Shown piece after piece: positions 4,381 to 47,621 of a stretch of DNA of 64,000 nt. The stretch covers positions 1-64,000 of the forward strand of contig JBEPVF010000007.1 in the NCBI GenBank assembly GCA_041691135.1, read 5' to 3'. Position 1 is the stretch's first letter. Each line of letters opens with the position of its first letter. Position numbers and translations under genes: made by a program. This stretch comes from Candidatus Peribacteria bacterium. Lineage in GTDB: Bacteria > Patescibacteriota > Gracilibacteria > Peribacterales > Peribacteraceae. A model generated the notes under the pieces. That model saw only the letters and a list, made by a program, of their open reading frames with translations. It ran no database searches and was not told the origin of the DNA.

Positions 4381-4462
4381 CGACCGACGCAACCAAGGGA
4401 ACCGACGAAACCGAAGATCCAGATCTTGCTTGTCTAAGAAGATCATCGGTCACCTCGGTCAC
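4381..4462. repeat. Degenerate 9-mer tandem repeat (ACCGAnGnn type) in inverted arrangement
   Basis: CGACCGACGCAACCAAGGGAACCGACGAAACCGAAG followed by CATCGGTCACCTCGGTCACC. Confidence 0.55.
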
Positions 4463-6525
4463 CGTATAATTACCTTCGCATCCAACACCACCGTTCCGTT
4501 CTCATCCACGAACACCGGGTTAAGATCCAGTTCGTTGATTTGTGGACAGTCGCTGATCAGATCCGAGATTGTCATCACAATCTGCACCAGTGCGGCGATG
4601 TCGGATTGTCCTTTACCGCGCATGCCCATCAGCAGCTTCCACGCATGCAGACCCTGCAGCATGGCGTAGACTTCTTTCTCTTCCACGGGAGCGATGCGGA
4701 AGACGACATCGTTGAACAGTTCGGTGTAAATGCCGCCCAGGCCGATCATGATCAGGTGGCCGAACGACGCATCTTCGGCGGCGCCGACGATAAACTCGTT
4801 GCCGGCCGGGAGGAATTTTTGAATCAGGATTCCTTCGAGATAAAAATCGGGATCGTAATTGTGGACATTCTGGATAATCTCGTCGTAGGCACGCCGAACG
4901 TCCTCCGGATTCATCAGGTTTGCCCGCACGCCGCCGATGTCCGTTTTGTGCGCCACATCGGGCGAGCTTGCTTTGGCCACCACCGGAAAGCCGATCTTCT
5001 CGGCGTAGCGGATGGCTTCGTCGACCGTCTGTGCCAGGGCCTGGGCCGGTGTCGGCAATTGGTACAGCGAGAAGAGTTCTTTAGTCACCTCTGCATTCAG
5101 CAGTCCATGCTGATTCGCGATGATTGCCTGTGCTTTGGCCGTGCGTTCAGGCGATAGTTTCCTTACCGTGAGGGTCTGCTCAACCATCGACTTCTGCAAA
5201 TGCTTCAGCGCATGCACGGCCCGCTCCGGTGAGGGGAAGTTCGGGATGCCATGTGACTGCAGCAGATCGATCGCTTCGCGGACGCTCTCGTCTCCCATGA
5301 AACACGTCACGATCGGCATCAGCGGATAATGCTGCAAGCCCTGGATCACCGTCTTTGCAATCTCCAGACTCGGCGTCATGATCTGCGGCGTAAGAACGAC
5401 GACCAAGCCGTCGATATTCTCGTCGCGACCGCAGGCTTCCACTGCATAGCCGTACCGGTCGGCCAGCGCATCGCCCAGCACATCGATCGGGTTTTCGACG
5501 CTGGCTGCTTTGGGCAGCAGCAGTCGCAGCGATGACTTGTGTTCCATATCGAGCGATGCGAGCATCAGCTTCTCTTTTTCAGCCGCATCAGTGGCAAGAA
5601 TGCCAGGACCGCCGGCATTGGTGATCACACCGATATTCGGCGACAACAGCGGCGGCTGCGTGCCGAGCGTCCGCACGAGGTCCAAAAACTCCTGTGTCGA
5701 TTGGGCGCGGTGGATTCCGGCCTGCGAACAGACGGCCGCAATGGCGCTCTCGGATCCGGCCATGGCGCCGGTATGCGACGACACGGCATGTTCGCCTTTT
5801 CGCGAGGTACCGGATTTGATCAGCACGATGTGTTTGGTCTGACTGACGCGCTTGGTGATATCCAGGAATTTGCGGCCGCCACGAATGTTCTCCAGATACA
5901 GGCCGATCACTTTTGTTTCGGGATCATTTTCGCAGATCTCCAGAAAATCACATTCATCCATCGTTGCTTTATTGCCCATACTCACGATGAACGAGAATCC
6001 CAGATACAGCGATTTGGCACTATCCATAATAGCCACAGCCATCGCGCCCGACTGGCTCAGTAGGGCAATGTTGCCTTTCTGCGGCAGGCTCACGGCGAAC
6101 GATGCGTTCATGCCGATGGAAGGACGCAGAATACCCAGGCAATTAGGTCCTACCAGCTGCATGCCATATTTTTGGACGATGGTTTTGAGTTCCTCTTCGC
6201 GCGTCTTGCCTTCGTCGTTGCCCAGTTCGCCGAATCCGGCGCTGATGACGACCAGGATTTTCACACCCTTCTGGCCACATTCTTCGGCGATGGTCGTGAC
6301 CACCTGCGATGGAGTGACAATAAGTGCCAGTTCCACAGCTTCGGGAATAGCCGACACCGACGGGAACGTTTTTTGTCCCAGCACCTCGGGATGCTTGGGG
6401 TTCACTGCATACAGCCGTCCCGTATATCCCTGCGTGAGCAGGTTCTGGAAGATGTAGTGGCCGACTTTGCCTTCCTCACTCGAGGCACCAATCACGGCGA
6501 TGGAGGCGGGATGGAGAAGAGACAT
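4459..6525 (-). CDS. ADP-forming acetate/acyl-CoA ligase, fused alpha-beta (AcdAB type)
   Basis: IAVIGAS, GPNCLG, SQSGA, SHTGAMAG, NPIDVLGDA and C-terminal ATP-grasp (HKTDIGGV, ELDLNP). Confidence 0.92.
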   Translation of the reverse strand: MSLLHPASIAVIGASSEEGKVGHYIFQNLLTQGYTGRLYAVNPKHPEVLGQKTFPSVSAIPEAVELALIVTPSQVVTTIAEECGQKGVKILVVISAGFGELGNDEGKTREEELKTIVQKYGMQLVGPNCLGILRPSIGMNASFAVSLPQKGNIALLSQSGAMAVAIMDSAKSLYLGFSFIVSMGNKATMDECDFLEICENDPETKVIGLYLENIRGGRKFLDITKRVSQTKHIVLIKSGTSRKGEHAVSSHTGAMAGSESAIAAVCSQAGIHRAQSTQEFLDLVRTLGTQPPLLSPNIGVITNAGGPGILATDAAEKEKLMLASLDMEHKSSLRLLLPKAASVENPIDVLGDALADRYGYAVEACGRDENIDGLVVVLTPQIMTPSLEIAKTVIQGLQHYPLMPIVTCFMGDESVREAIDLLQSHGIPNFPSPERAVHALKHLQKSMVEQTLTVRKLSPERTAKAQAIIANQHGLLNAEVTKELFSLYQLPTPAQALAQTVDEAIRYAEKIGFPVVAKASSPDVAHKTDIGGVRANLMNPEDVRRAYDEIIQNVHNYDPDFYLEGILIQKFLPAGNEFIVGAAEDASFGHLIMIGLGGIYTELFNDVVFRIAPVEEKEVYAMLQGLHAWKLLMGMRGKGQSDIAALVQIVMTISDLISDCPQINELDLNPVFVDENGTVVLDAKVIIR

Positions 6526-6579
6526 TTCCTTATAGTATAGCAGAATTTGAGGCTTTTTCCCATGCGTTTTCGGCACGTC

Positions 6580-6622
6580 AAAACCCCCCGGCGCGTCTAG
6601 ATCGACTGCGTCGGGGGTAAAA
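6580..6622 (-). terminator. Intrinsic terminator of the 6680-6973 cassette
   Basis: Minus strand CCCCCGACGC...GCGCCGGGGGG followed by TTTT. Confidence 0.65.
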
Positions 6623-6679
6623 GATTGATCGCCAGAGTGGCGTCGCTTTTTTGGCTACGAGGCTTCATGCCCTAATTCC

Positions 6680-6973
6680 TCAGTGAGGTCGGAAGGGATG
6701 GGGGAAGAAGCCGTGCGGCCCACGTGGAACGTGATGGCCGTAAAACATCACCCACGGTCTCACAGGGTGTGCGAATGGGGAGACGAAGCTTGGGACGACC
6801 CATCCGGGGTCGCCTGGCCGCATCTCGATGATGATCTGGTCGTGGGAGTGATCCTTCACTCCATTTAAGAACGGGCCCGTTCCCGGGGGGATGATGTAGC
6901 CAGGAACCGAAAGCAACGCTTTCAGCTCCAGGCTTTCCAGCTTGGGCTTGAAGTTCCGCATGTCGCGTTTCAT
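6680..6973 (-). CDS. Small Pro/His-rich protein with LEPR-XLL / Planc_extracel-like N-terminal motif
   Basis: MKRDMRNFKPKLESLELKALLS; GGAG SD upstream; own promoter and terminator. Confidence 0.7.
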   Translation of the reverse strand: MKRDMRNFKPKLESLELKALLSVPGYIIPPGTGPFLNGVKDHSHDQIIIEMRPGDPGWVVPSFVSPFAHPVRPWVMFYGHHVPRGPHGFFPHPFRPH

Positions 6974-7074
6974 TGCAATGCTCCGAAGGTAAGCGACGCT
7001 TTCAACGATCAGTCTAGAGGCGCGGTGCCTCCGCATTAGTTGATCGTCGACTAGGAGGCGACGCTCTATTGGTC

Positions 7075-7102
7075 ATGCTAAATCTTCTGGGCAAATTGTC
7101 AA
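7075..7102 (-). promoter_or_regulatory. Sigma70-type promoter for the 6680-6973 cassette
   Basis: Minus strand TTGACA-16 nt-TAGCAT. Confidence 0.6.
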
Positions 7103-7167
7103 CAATATTTGACATACAAATATTCTCTCTTAAAGCATCATTTTGAGCGAAAGGGTACAATCAGCTC

Positions 7168-7611
7168 ATGTTGATTCAAATTCTCTACGCCTCCACCAGC
7201 GGCCACACCGAATATGTGGTCGAGCAGTTGGCCAAATTCCTGCAGGAAAAGAAGATTGGTGCCGAAGTACTGCGGGCCGAAAAGGCACAGCCGGAAGATC
7301 TCTTGAAGGGAGACGTGCTGGTTCTTGCGACGAGCACTTGGAATACAGGAAACACCGAGGGTCAACTTAATCCTCACATGTACCATTACCTGCTTGATAT
7401 TGCCAAAGATGTTGAACTGAAAGGCAAGAAGATTGCGGTGATCGGTTTGGGTGATGAGCGGTATCACTACACCTGCCGGGCGGCGGATCACATGGAAAAA
7501 TTTGTCGAGGCGCATGGCGGCGAACTGGTGCAGCCAACATTGCGCATCGTCAATGAGCCATACGGACAAGAAGCGATGATACGCACGTGGGGTGAAGGCT
7601 TACTCAAATGA
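7168..7611 (+). CDS. Flavodoxin
   Basis: ILYASTSGHTE, TSTW..G, GLGDERY. Confidence 0.92.
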   Translation: MLIQILYASTSGHTEYVVEQLAKFLQEKKIGAEVLRAEKAQPEDLLKGDVLVLATSTWNTGNTEGQLNPHMYHYLLDIAKDVELKGKKIAVIGLGDERYHYTCRAADHMEKFVEAHGGELVQPTLRIVNEPYGQEAMIRTWGEGLLK

Positions 7612-13078: not shown

Positions 13079-13753
13079 TCAGCGTACATCTTGCCCATTC
13101 GTCGATGTCTTCATCGTATTATTCAGCTTTACCCGGTAGATCAGTTCGACCATTTCGGCGCGGGTCATGTAGTGCGCGGCGGTTTTGATCGAGGTCGGGA
13201 TCGCCTTCAGGTCCGATAATTTATCGACGTACTGCTTGTACCAATGGTCACTCGACTTATCGGGATTCGCAAAGTCGGCAACGAAGGTGTTCACGACGAT
13301 CTTGGCGGCTTCGGCAAAGTTGATGGGATTCCCCGGACGGTACGATCCGTCGCTATAACCATCAATAATATCTTTTATCTGCGCAGCGCAGACGGCGTTG
13401 GCATACCAGGAATCTTTTTGCACATCGAAGAAGAAAATATGAATCTTGTCCGTCTCGTGATCCGACACGCAGTTATTGGTCACATCGGTGTTGAGGAAGA
13501 ATGGATTCGTGATGAAGTACGCGAATTCAGCGCGATTGATTTGCTGGTCAGGCTTGAATGTTCCATCGGCGTAGCCGCGAATTAAATTTTGCTGACGGAA
13601 GTATTCAATCGACGTGTAGAACGGTGATGTGGTCGGGACATCGGTGAACGGAGCATTCGAGAATGGTGTGGTGGCTGCCAGAGTCGGTGCGGCGGTACAC
13701 AGAATTGACAGCGCCGTCAGAAGGCCGAAGCCAGCGCGGAGATGCGTGGTCAT
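13079..13753 (-). CDS. Secreted S-layer homology (SLH) domain protein
   Basis: Signal peptide; FTDV, IRGYADGTFKPDQQINRAE, GYSDGSYRPGNPINFAE. Confidence 0.9.
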   Translation of the reverse strand: MTTHLRAGFGLLTALSILCTAAPTLAATTPFSNAPFTDVPTTSPFYTSIEYFRQQNLIRGYADGTFKPDQQINRAEFAYFITNPFFLNTDVTNNCVSDHETDKIHIFFFDVQKDSWYANAVCAAQIKDIIDGYSDGSYRPGNPINFAEAAKIVVNTFVADFANPDKSSDHWYKQYVDKLSDLKAIPTSIKTAAHYMTRAEMVELIYRVKLNNTMKTSTNGQDVR

Positions 13754-45188: not shown

Positions 45189-47621
45189 TTAGGACTTCGT
45201 CTCGTCGTCTCGCTTAATCCCGAACAGCTTGGGCTTTTCCGCCCAATGCGTCACCGCAAGGTGCCGTAGCATCCAGCGGGTGATGACGATGGCGGTGAAG
45301 AGGGACAGGAGCACGCCCAGAGCGAGGGTGACGGCGAAGCCACGGACGATGGAGGTGCCGATCGTGAACAGGATGAAGCAGGTGATGAGCGTCGAGACGT
45401 TGCCATCGCGGATGGCAGGCCAGGCGTACTGGAAGCTGGTTTCGACGGCCGTCTTGACCGACTTGCCTTTGCGAAGCTCTTCGCGCATGCGTTCGAATAC
45501 GAGCACGTTGGCATCCACGGCCATGCCGATGCTAAGGATAATACCGGCCATGCCGGCTACGGTGAGCACGACGTACGTGTGTGTGACAAGCAGCAACGGC
45601 AGCTTGAGCATCGCGAAGAAGATCATGGCGTACATCAGCAGTCCTACGTCGGCGACAAGGCCGAGCAGGCGGTAGCGCAGAATCATGTAGAGCATCAGGA
45701 TTACCAGACCGATGAGCGCAGCATGCAATGAGGTGGCCAGAGCTGCGGAGCCGAGCGTGGCCTCTACCGTGTGCTGACCGACCAGGTGGATCGGAGCGGG
45801 GATGGCGCCGGTATTCAGATCCTGGGCCAGGCTCTTGGCCTCGTCGAAGTTGCCGTTACCGGTGATGATGGCTGTGCCACCGGCGATTTCCGTCTGCACA
45901 CGTGGGGCAGACACCAGCTCGCCGCCGACGAAAATGGCGATCTGCTTGCCGATGTTATTCTTGGTCAGTTCCTGGAATAACTTGCCGCCTTCGGTGTCGA
46001 AGATGATCTGGACGACCGGAACTCCCGTTACCTGGTCGACAGTCACAGTTGCCGTGCGGAAATGTTTGCCGTCGAGCTGCGTGTCTTTCCAACCGGTGGG
46101 CTTGAGCGAGAAGAATAGCGTGCGCAGGTGGATGGCTTCCTCTTGATCGCGTACCTCGCCGGCCTGGAGCTTTTTAATCAGGGCATCCGCCGTCTTGAGC
46201 GGCTCTTTGCCGGACAAAAGGAGGTCGTCATAACTCACGACATCAGGCGATTTGGTGGCAGCCTTATCAAGGCGAATGATGTGGTAGCCGAATTGTGTTT
46301 CGAGTACCGGCGAGAGATCGCCGGGCTTCACCAGTTTGTACGCCGCCTGTTCGAAGGCCGGCACCATCACGCCGTGACCGAAGGCTCCCAGTTTGCCGCC
46401 CTGCGCTTTCGATGGACCGTCGGACTCCGTCCGGGCGATCTGATCAAAACTCTCGCCCTTATCCAATCGCTGCTTGATATCATTGATCTTCGCGAGGGCC
46501 TCCTGTTTGGTGCGGGTTACCGATTTGTCGGCATTTTCGGCGCCTTTGTACTGGATCAGGATGTGGCTTGCCTCGATCTGCTCATCGCCCTTCGCGAACT
46601 CACGTTCGAATAGAATGTGTCCCTTGCCATCTTCCGTCTGCACGGACTTAAGGTCGCCCGGCTTCATGGCACGCAGAGTGCCGGTGATGCGTGCGCCCAC
46701 TTTTTCGTCCAGCTTCTCTTTATCGTGGTACACGTACGATGCACCCGACTGCGCCTTAGTGAGGTAGGCGAATGCTTTAGGTGCTTCGGAGATCAAGCGG
46801 CCGGTCATGGTCTTGGGCTGCACCACTTCGGCGATGAAAATGCCGTCTACTGTTTCTTCCGTGGGCTTACCAGCGCTATCGGTCTGCGATACCTGTACCG
46901 ATCCGTCATGCATCACGACCTTGCCAGGTTGCATGGTCCACAGATCCTCAAGCCCCTTTGGCAACGTATCCTGATAGAACATGCCATTATCGTTGTAGGC
47001 CATGCCGAGCTGTGTGCCGATATCCTGGCCTTCTTTGTTCAGTGTGGATCCGCTTTGCGTGATCGCTTTATAGGTGGCATCTGCTTTGGCACGAACGCCC
47101 GCTTTGTACTCATCCGTTGCCTGAGTGAATTCTTCTTTAAATTCAAGTTGGATCGTTTTGCCGACAACCTTGATGCATTCCTGTACGTCCACGACGCCCG
47201 GACATTCTACGAGCAGGTGCTTCTCGTTGCCGAAATACGAAGGCGTAATTGTGGCTTCGCTCACACCGAGACCGTTGATACGGCGCTCAAGCACAACGCG
47301 GATCGCTTCCATCAGGTTCTGTTTCTGATCCTGAATGCTCTGGCGCTCAGCCTGCAGCTGCGCGAGGGCATTGCCACCACCCTCTTGCTGGGCTGCGGCG
47401 ATCTGTTTATCGAGGTCGGCCAACTGGCTGGTAATTTCTTCCTCGGAGATACGGAAATCGAGTTGCGTACCGCCGGCGAGATCCAATCCCAAATGCAGGC
47501 TGGGAGCCTGGATGAACGACGGCGCCCACTTCTTCCATTCCTGCGGCATGGCAACAAGCATCACTGCGATCGCCACGATCACAGTAACAATAGGCCACAG
47601 AGGGGAACGACGCGCTGCCAT
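45189..47621 (-). CDS. secD: Protein translocase subunit SecD with an inserted parvulin-type PPIase domain
   Basis: LGLDLAGG, RRINGLGVSE, GMAVDANVL.FER; insert ASHILI…SDGPS…GG.LG…F…TQFGYHII. Confidence 0.93.
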   Translation of the reverse strand: MAARRSPLWPIVTVIVAIAVMLVAMPQEWKKWAPSFIQAPSLHLGLDLAGGTQLDFRISEEEITSQLADLDKQIAAAQQEGGGNALAQLQAERQSIQDQKQNLMEAIRVVLERRINGLGVSEATITPSYFGNEKHLLVECPGVVDVQECIKVVGKTIQLEFKEEFTQATDEYKAGVRAKADATYKAITQSGSTLNKEGQDIGTQLGMAYNDNGMFYQDTLPKGLEDLWTMQPGKVVMHDGSVQVSQTDSAGKPTEETVDGIFIAEVVQPKTMTGRLISEAPKAFAYLTKAQSGASYVYHDKEKLDEKVGARITGTLRAMKPGDLKSVQTEDGKGHILFEREFAKGDEQIEASHILIQYKGAENADKSVTRTKQEALAKINDIKQRLDKGESFDQIARTESDGPSKAQGGKLGAFGHGVMVPAFEQAAYKLVKPGDLSPVLETQFGYHIIRLDKAATKSPDVVSYDDLLLSGKEPLKTADALIKKLQAGEVRDQEEAIHLRTLFFSLKPTGWKDTQLDGKHFRTATVTVDQVTGVPVVQIIFDTEGGKLFQELTKNNIGKQIAIFVGGELVSAPRVQTEIAGGTAIITGNGNFDEAKSLAQDLNTGAIPAPIHLVGQHTVEATLGSAALATSLHAALIGLVILMLYMILRYRLLGLVADVGLLMYAMIFFAMLKLPLLLVTHTYVVLTVAGMAGIILSIGMAVDANVLVFERMREELRKGKSVKTAVETSFQYAWPAIRDGNVSTLITCFILFTIGTSIVRGFAVTLALGVLLSLFTAIVITRWMLRHLAVTHWAEKPKLFGIKRDDETKS

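Follow-up and report, generated by a model that had tools for sequence, protein, structure and literature searches.

A mini-gene of 97 codons in a genome of Candidatus Peribacteria appears, from its sequence relationships, to be restricted to its lineage and to carry a variant, native to this organism, of a described N-terminal surface-protein motif, LEPR-XLL/Planc_extracel. We consider the chances even that it is a genuine small gene of Candidatus Peribacteria, restricted to this lineage, and the prospect that it is now expressed as a small exported or surface peptide is finely balanced. The case for a functional mini-protein is moderate; it is built on a reading frame that stays open in four diverged genomes, on conservation of about 40 N-terminal residues at the amino-acid level, and on the start and terminator that every version retains.

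The stretch of DNA that was analysed, 64,000 nucleotides in length and called the window below, represents contig C7 of assembly G000, a Candidatus Peribacteria (CPR) genome of 1.74 Mb in 35 contigs with an estimated completeness of 92%. The larger open reading frames (ORFs) of the window encode TrmD, Fpg, GMP synthase, EF-P, GatB, glutamine synthetase, and SecDF, as assigned with Pfam, and sigma factors and an SLH-domain protein are encoded as well. The neighbour that had been called an acyl-CoA ligase in a reading of the sequence alone (the sequence-only reading) has the Pfam domains of an ADP-forming acetyl-CoA synthetase. The synthetase is 80-81% identical to the proteins encoded at two related loci, L009 (genome G004) and L010 (G001). 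Among 37 genome records with a synthetase homologue, 36 are assigned to Peribacteria, Peribacteraceae, Peribacterales, Peregrinibacteria, or Patescibacteria, and the remaining, distant one (43% identity) belongs to Anaerolineae. Because the relatives of the synthetase are nearly all of the Peribacteria type and the window contains housekeeping genes, we assign the window to the chromosome of a CPR bacterium; it is neither planctomycete nor phage DNA.

The mini-gene occupies a gap of 642 nt between the divergent synthetase and flavodoxin genes, 153 nt upstream of the synthetase start at 6525, and genes for subunits of a 2-oxoacid:ferredoxin oxidoreductase (Pfam POR_N/POR and TPP_enzyme_C) lie beyond the flavodoxin gene. 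The gap and the divergence of the flavodoxin gene agree with the sequence-only reading, but the mini-gene is co-directional with the synthetase gene. The same reading regarded the mini-gene as inserted, which finds no support: its G+C content is the same as that of the flanks, and its position in the genus is syntenic. The coordinates of the features are collected in Table 1.

Table 1. Positions of the mini-gene, its predicted signals, its neighbours, and the large motif proteins of the same genome. Coordinates refer to the window unless a contig is given; G000 is the genome that carries the window.
Feature	Position	Strand	Basis
ADP-forming acetyl-CoA synthetase gene, downstream of and co-directional with the mini-ORF	4459..6525	-	Pfam CoA_binding_2, Succ_CoA_lig, ATP-grasp_5
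Terminator-like hairpin followed by UUUU, G+C-rich, between the mini-ORF and the synthetase gene	~6580..6617	-	z -2.5
Mini-ORF P0001, 97 aa and stop codon	6680..6973	-	Translation of the window
Pro/His/Phe/Gly-rich tail, residues 41-97, and stop codon	6680..6853	-	Composition; unconserved; disorder predicted
Second conserved block, residues Y26-K40 (Y.I.PG.G.FL.GVK)	6854..6898	-	Alignment A2
N-terminal LEPR-XLL-like motif, residues F8-G25 (FKPKLESLELKALLSVPG)	6899..6952	-	Kept in the L009 and L010 orthologues
Predicted long leader hairpin, outer stem UCGACGAUCA/UGAUCGUUGA, inner stem G+C-rich	6991..7066	-	RNA folding and alignment fold
Predicted sigma-70-like promoter, TTGACA-16-TAGCAT	7075..7102	-	Promoter scan; TTGACA...TAGGAT in L009 and L010
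Flavodoxin gene, divergent from the mini-ORF	7168..7611	+	Pfam Flavodoxin_1
WD40 motif proteins	G000:C2:222704-226462 and C2:50722-55866
Split DUF11 protein	G000:C2:23201-26132

The mini-protein begins with MKRDMRNFKPKLESLELKALLSVPG..., as translated from the minus strand of 6680-6973, and its frame is the sole open frame across this interval in the window as well as at L009 and L010. An alternative in-frame ATG at 7036 would give a form of 118 aa; this codon sits within the leader hairpin and is absent from the relatives in an alignment of the locus. Since the upstream ATG is not conserved, 6973 is the likely start. A GGAG sequence 7 nt before this start was dropped as Shine-Dalgarno support, because such 4-mers are uninformative in this genome: they are equally frequent upstream of the first ATGs of 799 long ORFs (9%) and in internal control windows (9%). 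The mini-protein is basic (pI 9.9), and the basic stretch MKRDMRN directly precedes the motif. The Pro/His/Phe-rich tail described in the sequence-only reading is present; its 57 residues include 11 Pro, 8 His, 6 Phe, and 5 Gly. When AlphaFold2 was run on alignment A2, which consists of the proteins of the window and its orthologues, the mean pLDDT for the mini-protein was 44.9 and the model contained no confident structural element. A search of the ESM Atlas with the mini-protein gave a best score of 0.75 and no lead. The maximum Kyte-Doolittle mean over 15 residues was 1.19, and in the three proteins examined, namely the mini-protein and a protein of contig C2 of G000 (by hydrophobicity) and L060 (by eye), no Sec-type hydrophobic signal was found.

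The promoter, leader of ~95 nt, and terminator attributed to the mini-gene in the sequence-only reading were recovered as predicted signals. A promoter scan of 6400-7300 found two promoter-like sites where 0.5 was expected, and the predicted promoter of the mini-gene implies the ~95-nt leader, which can be folded into a long hairpin with an energy of -33.4 kcal/mol (z -1.8). The alignment fold, calculated from three sequences, contains 28 predicted pairs, of which 3 show compensatory changes, and the hairpin is single-copy in G000. A DNA alignment of the locus (A1) revealed that the two closest genomes keep the promoter, the leader hairpin, the start position, and the terminator hairpin, the last with altered loop and stem bases. 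A scan of the entire window against Rfam yielded no match that reached the gathering threshold, and 6450-7250 gave none even at E<=1. The mini-gene would thereby form a transcription unit consisting of a predicted promoter, a structured leader, an ORF of 97 codons, and a terminator, upstream of the synthetase gene. A search for sequencing runs of this organism listed a single DNA run, which may be the source of the assembly, and no RNA run.

We compared the synthetase loci of related genomes and checked which genome each of the loci named here belongs to. L009 contains a motif-bearing ORF of 107 aa and L010 one of 101 aa with a GTG start, both at the same place and in the same orientation as the mini-ORF. 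These two proteins share with the window protein the sequences F-x-P...L-E-x-[K/R]-x-L-L-S-x-x-G and Y-x-I-x-P-G-x-G-x-F-L-x-G-V-K, and Y26, I28, P30, G31, G33, F35, L36, G38, V39, and K40 are invariant columns in A2. BLASTP aligned the window protein with the L009 protein at E = 2e-5. The more distant L030 (G002) has an ORF of 126 aa at the same place with a degenerate motif, SFERLEGRM. This version is equipped with its own TTGACA-17-TATAGT promoter and with a hairpin and T-run after the ORF that are analogous to the terminator, and it does not contain the long leader hairpin. At L011 (G003), the position is occupied by a DUF11 protein of 1000 aa with IENLEGRQLMAA near its N-terminus. A motif-bearing ORF thus adjoins the synthetase gene in all five genomes of the genus, as four small ORFs and one 1000-aa protein; pattern searches found no comparable ORF at the other 33 synthetase loci. 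Two further 'small' motif ORFs, on G004:C40 and G206:C118, are cut by contig ends and were discarded as not being true mini-proteins. The tails differ between the orthologues, being Ala/Pro-rich in L009 and L010 and a duplicated Pro-rich unit, in tandem, in L030. Searches with tblastx detected no hidden frame-shifted homology of the tails, either between lineages or to the large gene of L011, and the matches obtained reflected conservation of the promoter and leader in other frames.

The likeness of the N-terminus to the planctomycete motif was compared with the published consensus RRLxxExLExRxLLA (PMC8567305, 'Cell Surface Proteins'). By eye, residues 13-22 of the mini-protein read E-S-L-E-L-K-A-L-L-S, in which E, L, E, L, and L of the consensus are identical; R is replaced by K and A by S, and there are basic residues upstream. 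The Arg replaced by Lys is the invariant Arg of the motif. The sequence-only reading proposed a search with the Pfam model PF07595 (20 positions, gathering threshold 25.5 bits) and with the LEPR-XLL model, here NF012209 (24 positions, cut-off 17 bits), and took the lack of a match as a refutation of its claim. Neither model matched the 97-aa or the 118-aa form at E<=10, so formal LEPR-XLL membership of the mini-protein is refuted by that standard. Over the whole of G000, PF07595 gave a single match of 10.9 bits (G000:C2:226412-226438) that did not touch the mini-ORF, and NF012209 gave two sub-threshold matches, neither of them at the mini-ORF. A profile built from the 16 Peribacteraceae instances above the curated threshold scored the window protein at 3.4 bits (E about 130). 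No Pfam or NCBIfam domain, these two models included, was found at E<=10 in the mini-protein or in its L009 and L010 orthologues. What stands of the planctomycete-type claim is a real likeness, with kin among the large surface-type proteins of the lineage.

When 5.8 billion proteins were searched by a word index, the query was the only match. Five weak matches (E 1.5e-5 to 8.7e-4) came from an exhaustive phmmer search, which covered 1.84 billion representatives; all five were rejected as driven by composition or repeats, and Pfam scans of three of them identified unrelated proteins with SH3, EGF, and phage head-fibre repeats. Beyond the genus, no homologue was found among either the 5.8 billion or the 1.8 billion proteins.

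The motif was then counted in the genome itself. Across 3.48 million six-frame residues, the strict pattern [LIVM]E.[RK].[LM][LM]S has three occurrences, and only one of them, in the mini-ORF, falls within an ORF of at least 60 aa. The lineage pattern [FY].P.{1,2}[LVIF][EDR].[LM]E.[RK], derived solely from the large relatives, has four matches in 2.77 million six-frame residues of G000 with 0.48 expected and none in reversed decoys; together with subsequent LLS-type residues, it defines the lineage-specific motif of Peribacteraceae as used here. These four are a WD40 protein of 1252 aa, a protein of 1460 aa, the N-terminal piece of a DUF11 protein, and the mini-ORF; the genome-wide count of similar peptides suggested by the sequence-only reading accordingly yields three large proteins, each of about 1000 aa or more, besides the mini-ORF. 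With a profile of 18 large Peribacteraceae N-termini, the stop-to-stop segment of the mini-ORF ranked first among 39,811 six-frame segments (E 0.0053), followed by three N-termini of large proteins; on the 97-aa protein alone the same profile gave 13.7 bits (E 0.068). The profile itself contains no mini-proteins, but its members were first gathered with an alignment that included the window protein, and the recognising profiles therefore carry an ascertainment bias. Searches of all six-frame segments of G000 with phmmer and blastp-short found no significant paralogue of residues 1-40. Because of its conservation in orthologues, the excess of pattern matches in G000, and the rank in the 18-protein profile search, we judge from these sequence comparisons that the motif FKPKLESLELKALLS is not a chance occurrence.

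The motif is widespread on large proteins of the family. A profile of six N-termini (A3, threshold E<=0.05) matches 49 of 200 Peribacteraceae genomes, including 37 of the 151 of high quality, and most of the 24 matches that were inspected place the motif close to the N-terminus of an ORF of 500-1800 aa. The Pfam domains found among the 18 large motif proteins are Laminin_G_3, DUF11, CARDB, WD40, NPCBM, and RTX nonapeptide repeats. NF012209 exceeds its cut-off in 2 of these 18 proteins. PF07595 gives sub-threshold scores (11.6-17.5 bits) in 6 of them, always exactly at the motif, and 25.5 bits was reached by none of the 18 nor by the L011 protein, the best score being 17.5. At the genome level, NF012209 passes its cut-off in 16 of the 200 Peribacteraceae genomes versus none of 14 control genomes, and in 4 of 301 genomes sampled across the phylum; G000 and six other Peribacteraceae genomes within the latter sample gave no pass.

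Genome G000 encodes motif proteins of this kind, to which the 18-protein profile search adds a 1715-aa paralogue of the WD40 protein. Its DUF11 gene is split into a motif-bearing ORF of 108 aa and a remainder of 893 aa in the +1 frame, and over about 800 residues the split protein shares 37% identity with the protein found upstream of the synthetase gene in G003. Of the N-termini compared by eye, that of the split DUF11 protein (RGFKPQSLEGLEDRLVLSAV) comes closest to that of the mini-protein (RNFKPKLESLELKALLSVP). The large motif proteins of G000 and of the family share with the mini-protein the extension F-x-P-x-[LVF]-E-x-L-E-x-[RK]. They differ in what follows: 900-1700 aa of beta-propeller or DUF11 repeats in the large proteins, whereas the mini-protein, of only 97 aa and with no domain or predicted fold, ends in a disordered tail of 57 residues. 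On the basis of these alignments, the motif of the mini-protein belongs with the N-termini of the large surface-type proteins of the lineage and appears to be the organism's own.

These results bear on the proposal of the sequence-only reading that the mini-gene is a host-signal mimic or a decoy for the host export pathway, here taken to mean one that is carried by a phage or mobile element and imitates a planctomycete export signal. The likeness of the motif and a protein that is little more than this motif speak for such a decoy, but the genome is that of a CPR bacterium with housekeeping genes as neighbours, the mini-gene does not differ from its flanks in base composition, and synteny within the genus extends to its position. 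No relative was detected in viral and metagenome contigs (scanned with A2) or in 50,697 phage records (tblastn), and the same genome encodes its own large motif-bearing proteins. A decoy is thus very improbable.

Since the split DUF11 gene of G000 exemplifies the birth of a stub and its N-terminus is the closest to that of the mini-protein, the mini-gene was probably derived, as a copy or a stub, from the 5' end of a gene for a large surface protein. Coding potential and selection bear on whether it is functional. The codon-usage score of the mini-ORF (0.11) is the best of the six frames and corresponds to the 14th percentile of real-gene windows, and 20% of shadow ORFs exceed it. The score is gene-like over the first 40 codons (0.37) but non-genic over the tail (-0.07). 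Between the window and the DNA of its relatives, blastn found only a 42-nt match, in the promoter region of L010. The window and L009 proteins nevertheless have 19 identical residues in the first 56 alignment columns, and 9 of the 19 are specified by different codons, for instance Ser by TCG and AGC. Since residues are kept through different codons while the DNA is nearly unalignable, a constraint at the amino-acid level is suggested. The indels between L009 and L010 are multiples of three in 3 of 3 cases within the ORF (6, 12, and 3 nt) versus 1 of 8 in the leader and downstream spacer, a bias that is equally compatible with any of the six frames. The dN/dS ratio between L009 and L010 was 0.66 for the mini-gene, and 0.94 over the first 55 alignment columns, compared with 0.10 for the acetyl-CoA synthetase and 0.18 for the flavodoxin. 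As judged from the alignments, conservation ends at about residue 40; the tail beyond it, for which disorder is predicted, diverges quickly.

The relaxed dN/dS is what would be expected if the mini-gene were a functionless relic, namely a stub left from the 5' end of what was once a large gene for a LEPR-type surface protein. The ORF of the stub would then remain open by chance in G+C-rich DNA, and its promoter and leader would persist by also serving the divergent flavodoxin-oxidoreductase operon. The 1000-aa motif protein at the same position in G003, with its homologue located elsewhere and split into a stub and a remainder in G000, fits this explanation, as do tails that are unrelated between lineages, the non-genic codon score of the tail, the absence of a predicted fold, and the variation in ORF length from 97 to 126 aa. 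On the other hand, the ORF is open in four diverged genomes, while the chance of at least 97 stop-free codons in one such sequence is roughly 0.03-0.08 as estimated from base composition. A relic would also not be expected to keep the residues of the motif through different codons, to restrict its indels to multiples of three, or to retain in every version a start codon in an unchanged position and, beyond the stop codon, a terminator hairpin, nor would it account for the L030 version with its own promoter and duplicated Pro-rich tail unit. A relic of this kind is less likely than a functional small gene but is a serious alternative.

The leader hairpin and the unusually high DNA identity between L009 and L010 in the first part of the ORF raised a different explanation, in which the unit acts at the RNA level as a regulatory RNA, a dual-function sRNA, or an attenuator of the synthetase gene, and the peptide is incidental. 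The identity there reaches 92.7%, and 40 codons show about one synonymous change, versus a pS of 0.30-0.37 in the neighbouring genes. The conserved hairpin with its three compensatory pairs, the terminator hairpin between the ORF and the synthetase gene, and the adjacency to the synthetase gene throughout the genus are likewise consistent with an RNA-level role. Such a role does not explain why the window and L009 share an amino-acid motif but little DNA, or why the L030 version is without the long hairpin. Moreover, the synthetase gene has its own conserved TGnTAtAAT box, no Rfam family matches, and the stability of the hairpin is unexceptional. We therefore consider an RNA-level unit with an incidental peptide improbable.

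If the mini-gene is a small protein-coding gene, as we favour, the first ~25 residues of its product would be the lineage version of LEPR-XLL/Planc_extracel, in which a basic stretch is followed by F-x-P-x-L-E-x-L-E-x-[R/K]-x-L-L-S. The mini-protein might then be delivered to the surface or the outside by the same route as the large motif proteins, and would represent a peptide made of a signal plus a short Pro-rich tail. It is like the LEPR-XLL/Planc_extracel proteins in that a basic stretch is followed, within the first ~25 residues, by what by eye is the core E-x-L-E-x-[R]-x-L-L-[A/S], and in that a Sec-type hydrophobic region is absent. It differs from them in that the curated models miss it, Lys takes the place of Arg, the cargo is domainless and only 97 aa long, and the host is a CPR bacterium. 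A narrower possibility, to which we give little weight, is that the mini-protein is a 'signal-only' substrate of an export route that recognises LEPR-XLL, or a competitor or regulator of this route. Double-glycine and other leader peptides belong to small precursors with a conserved N-terminal leader and a variable C-terminal part. The mini-protein resembles them in its conserved N-terminus and variable C-terminus but is without a Gly-Gly cleavage motif, and a scan of the 30 larger ORFs of the window revealed neither an evident peptidase-domain ABC transporter nor an evident modification enzyme.

For planctomycetes, a role as a non-classical signal for export or the cell surface has been proposed for the motif, and the passages of PMC8567305 that concern this function describe it as hypothetical. 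There, 52 proteins of Tuwongella immobilis are reported to have a related motif, and 20 of the 52 were found in the proteome, 8 of these exclusively in the SDS-soluble fraction; the motif is carried by 8 of the species' 10 longest proteins (PMC8567305). A LEPR-XLL annotation is also given for a Vibrio protein of ~8000 aa (PMC10868602), and a giant protein with this annotation is mentioned for a Limnohabitans. None of the publications retrieved in a full-text search by the family names concerned CPR bacteria.

LEPR-XLL/Planc_extracel has been called a planctomycete-specific export signal. The present comparisons show that a recognisable version of it is common in one CPR family on large proteins of the surface type: the curated model detects it in 16 of 200 genomes and the lineage profile in 49 of 200. 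The motif as defined by the curated model is rare elsewhere in the phylum sample (4 of 301 genomes). One genus of this family keeps a protein of roughly 100 aa that contains little beyond the motif. For annotation, the lesson is that such a mini-gene is ordinary chromosomal content and not a phage decoy. If it were only a stub, it would be an example of orphan small ORFs originating at the 5' ends of surface genes that are large and evolve fast. If it is expressed, the mini-protein would be a minimal test substrate, and the very small genomes of these bacteria would leave a short list of candidates for the transport system. Should the 'signal-only' reading be true, it would be the smallest known cargo for testing the role of the motif, kept in a genome of ~1.7 Mb, and a comparison of the 49 carrier genomes with the rest of the 200 could expose the cognate machinery.

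With the curated LEPR-XLL model (NCBIfam NF012209), 16 of the 200 Peribacteraceae genomes searched had a match at or above the cut-off, compared with only 4 of the 301 genomes of a phylum-wide sample and none of 14 control genomes. The motif appears to be concentrated in Peribacteraceae within CPR. In the present genome (G000), three large ORFs outside the window carry the LEPR-XLL-like lineage motif near their N-terminus, and Pfam assigned WD40 repeats to the 1252-aa one. This WD40 protein and one of the other two appear to be paralogues, as judged from the similarity of their N-terminal regions.

A gene for a large DUF11 surface-type protein (loci L002 and L114), which also lies outside the window, is broken into two overlapping ORFs, one of 108 aa and a second, in the +1 frame, of 893 aa; the split reflects either a genuine frameshift or an error in the assembly. 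Its product has the N-terminal motif RGFKPQSLEGLEDRLVLSAV and shares 37% identity over ~800 aa with the 1000-aa protein encoded upstream of the acetyl-CoA synthetase gene in the related genome G003. The split gene adjoins a gene read by eye as pheS.

Features of the window (64,000 nt) and of contig C2 of the same genome
Feature	Location	Strand	Length
Extended -10-like box upstream of synthetase ATG	window ~6527-6545	-	
Second small hairpin	window 6619-6650		
Protein with two S-layer-homology domains	window 13079-13753	-	224 aa
SecDF-type protein with inserted PPIase (rotamase) domain	window 45189-47621	-	810 aa
Split DUF11 gene	C2:23201-26132		108 aa + 893 aa
Large ORF with lineage motif	C2:50722-55866	-	up to 1715 aa
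Large ORF with lineage motif	C2:222704-226462	-	1252 aa
Large ORF with lineage motif	C2:240357-244739	+	1460 aa

When the copies of the mini-ORF at two same-genus loci were compared, the first part (L009:3467-3590 versus L010) showed 92.7% DNA identity with ~1 synonymous change per 40 codons, whereas the tail showed 76.7% identity and the neighbouring genes differed at 0.30-0.37 synonymous differences per site. The high identity of the first part relative to the tail and neighbours suggests that it is under extra constraint at the nucleotide level or has recently recombined.

Upstream of the synthetase ATG lies an extended -10-like box (TGCTATACT / TGCTACAAT / TGCTATAAT), which is kept at the equivalent site in L009, L010, and a further same-genus locus, L030. 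Since the box ends only ~7-10 nt before the ATG, its predicted position suggests that the synthetase mRNA may have a very short leader or be leaderless. Across the whole genome, Shine-Dalgarno-like 4-mers showed no enrichment upstream of long ORFs when the first ATG was taken as the start, a crude choice of start site (9% of 799 ORFs, versus 9% of internal control windows).

The second small hairpin adjoins the terminator hairpin between the mini-ORF and the synthetase gene, and has a run of A on the minus strand and a run of T on the plus strand at its flanks. A simple terminator scan called it as a plus-strand terminator (6630-6642); no plus-strand gene ends at this hairpin.

The S-layer-homology protein and the SecDF-type protein encoded in the window are both relevant to the cell envelope and export of the organism.
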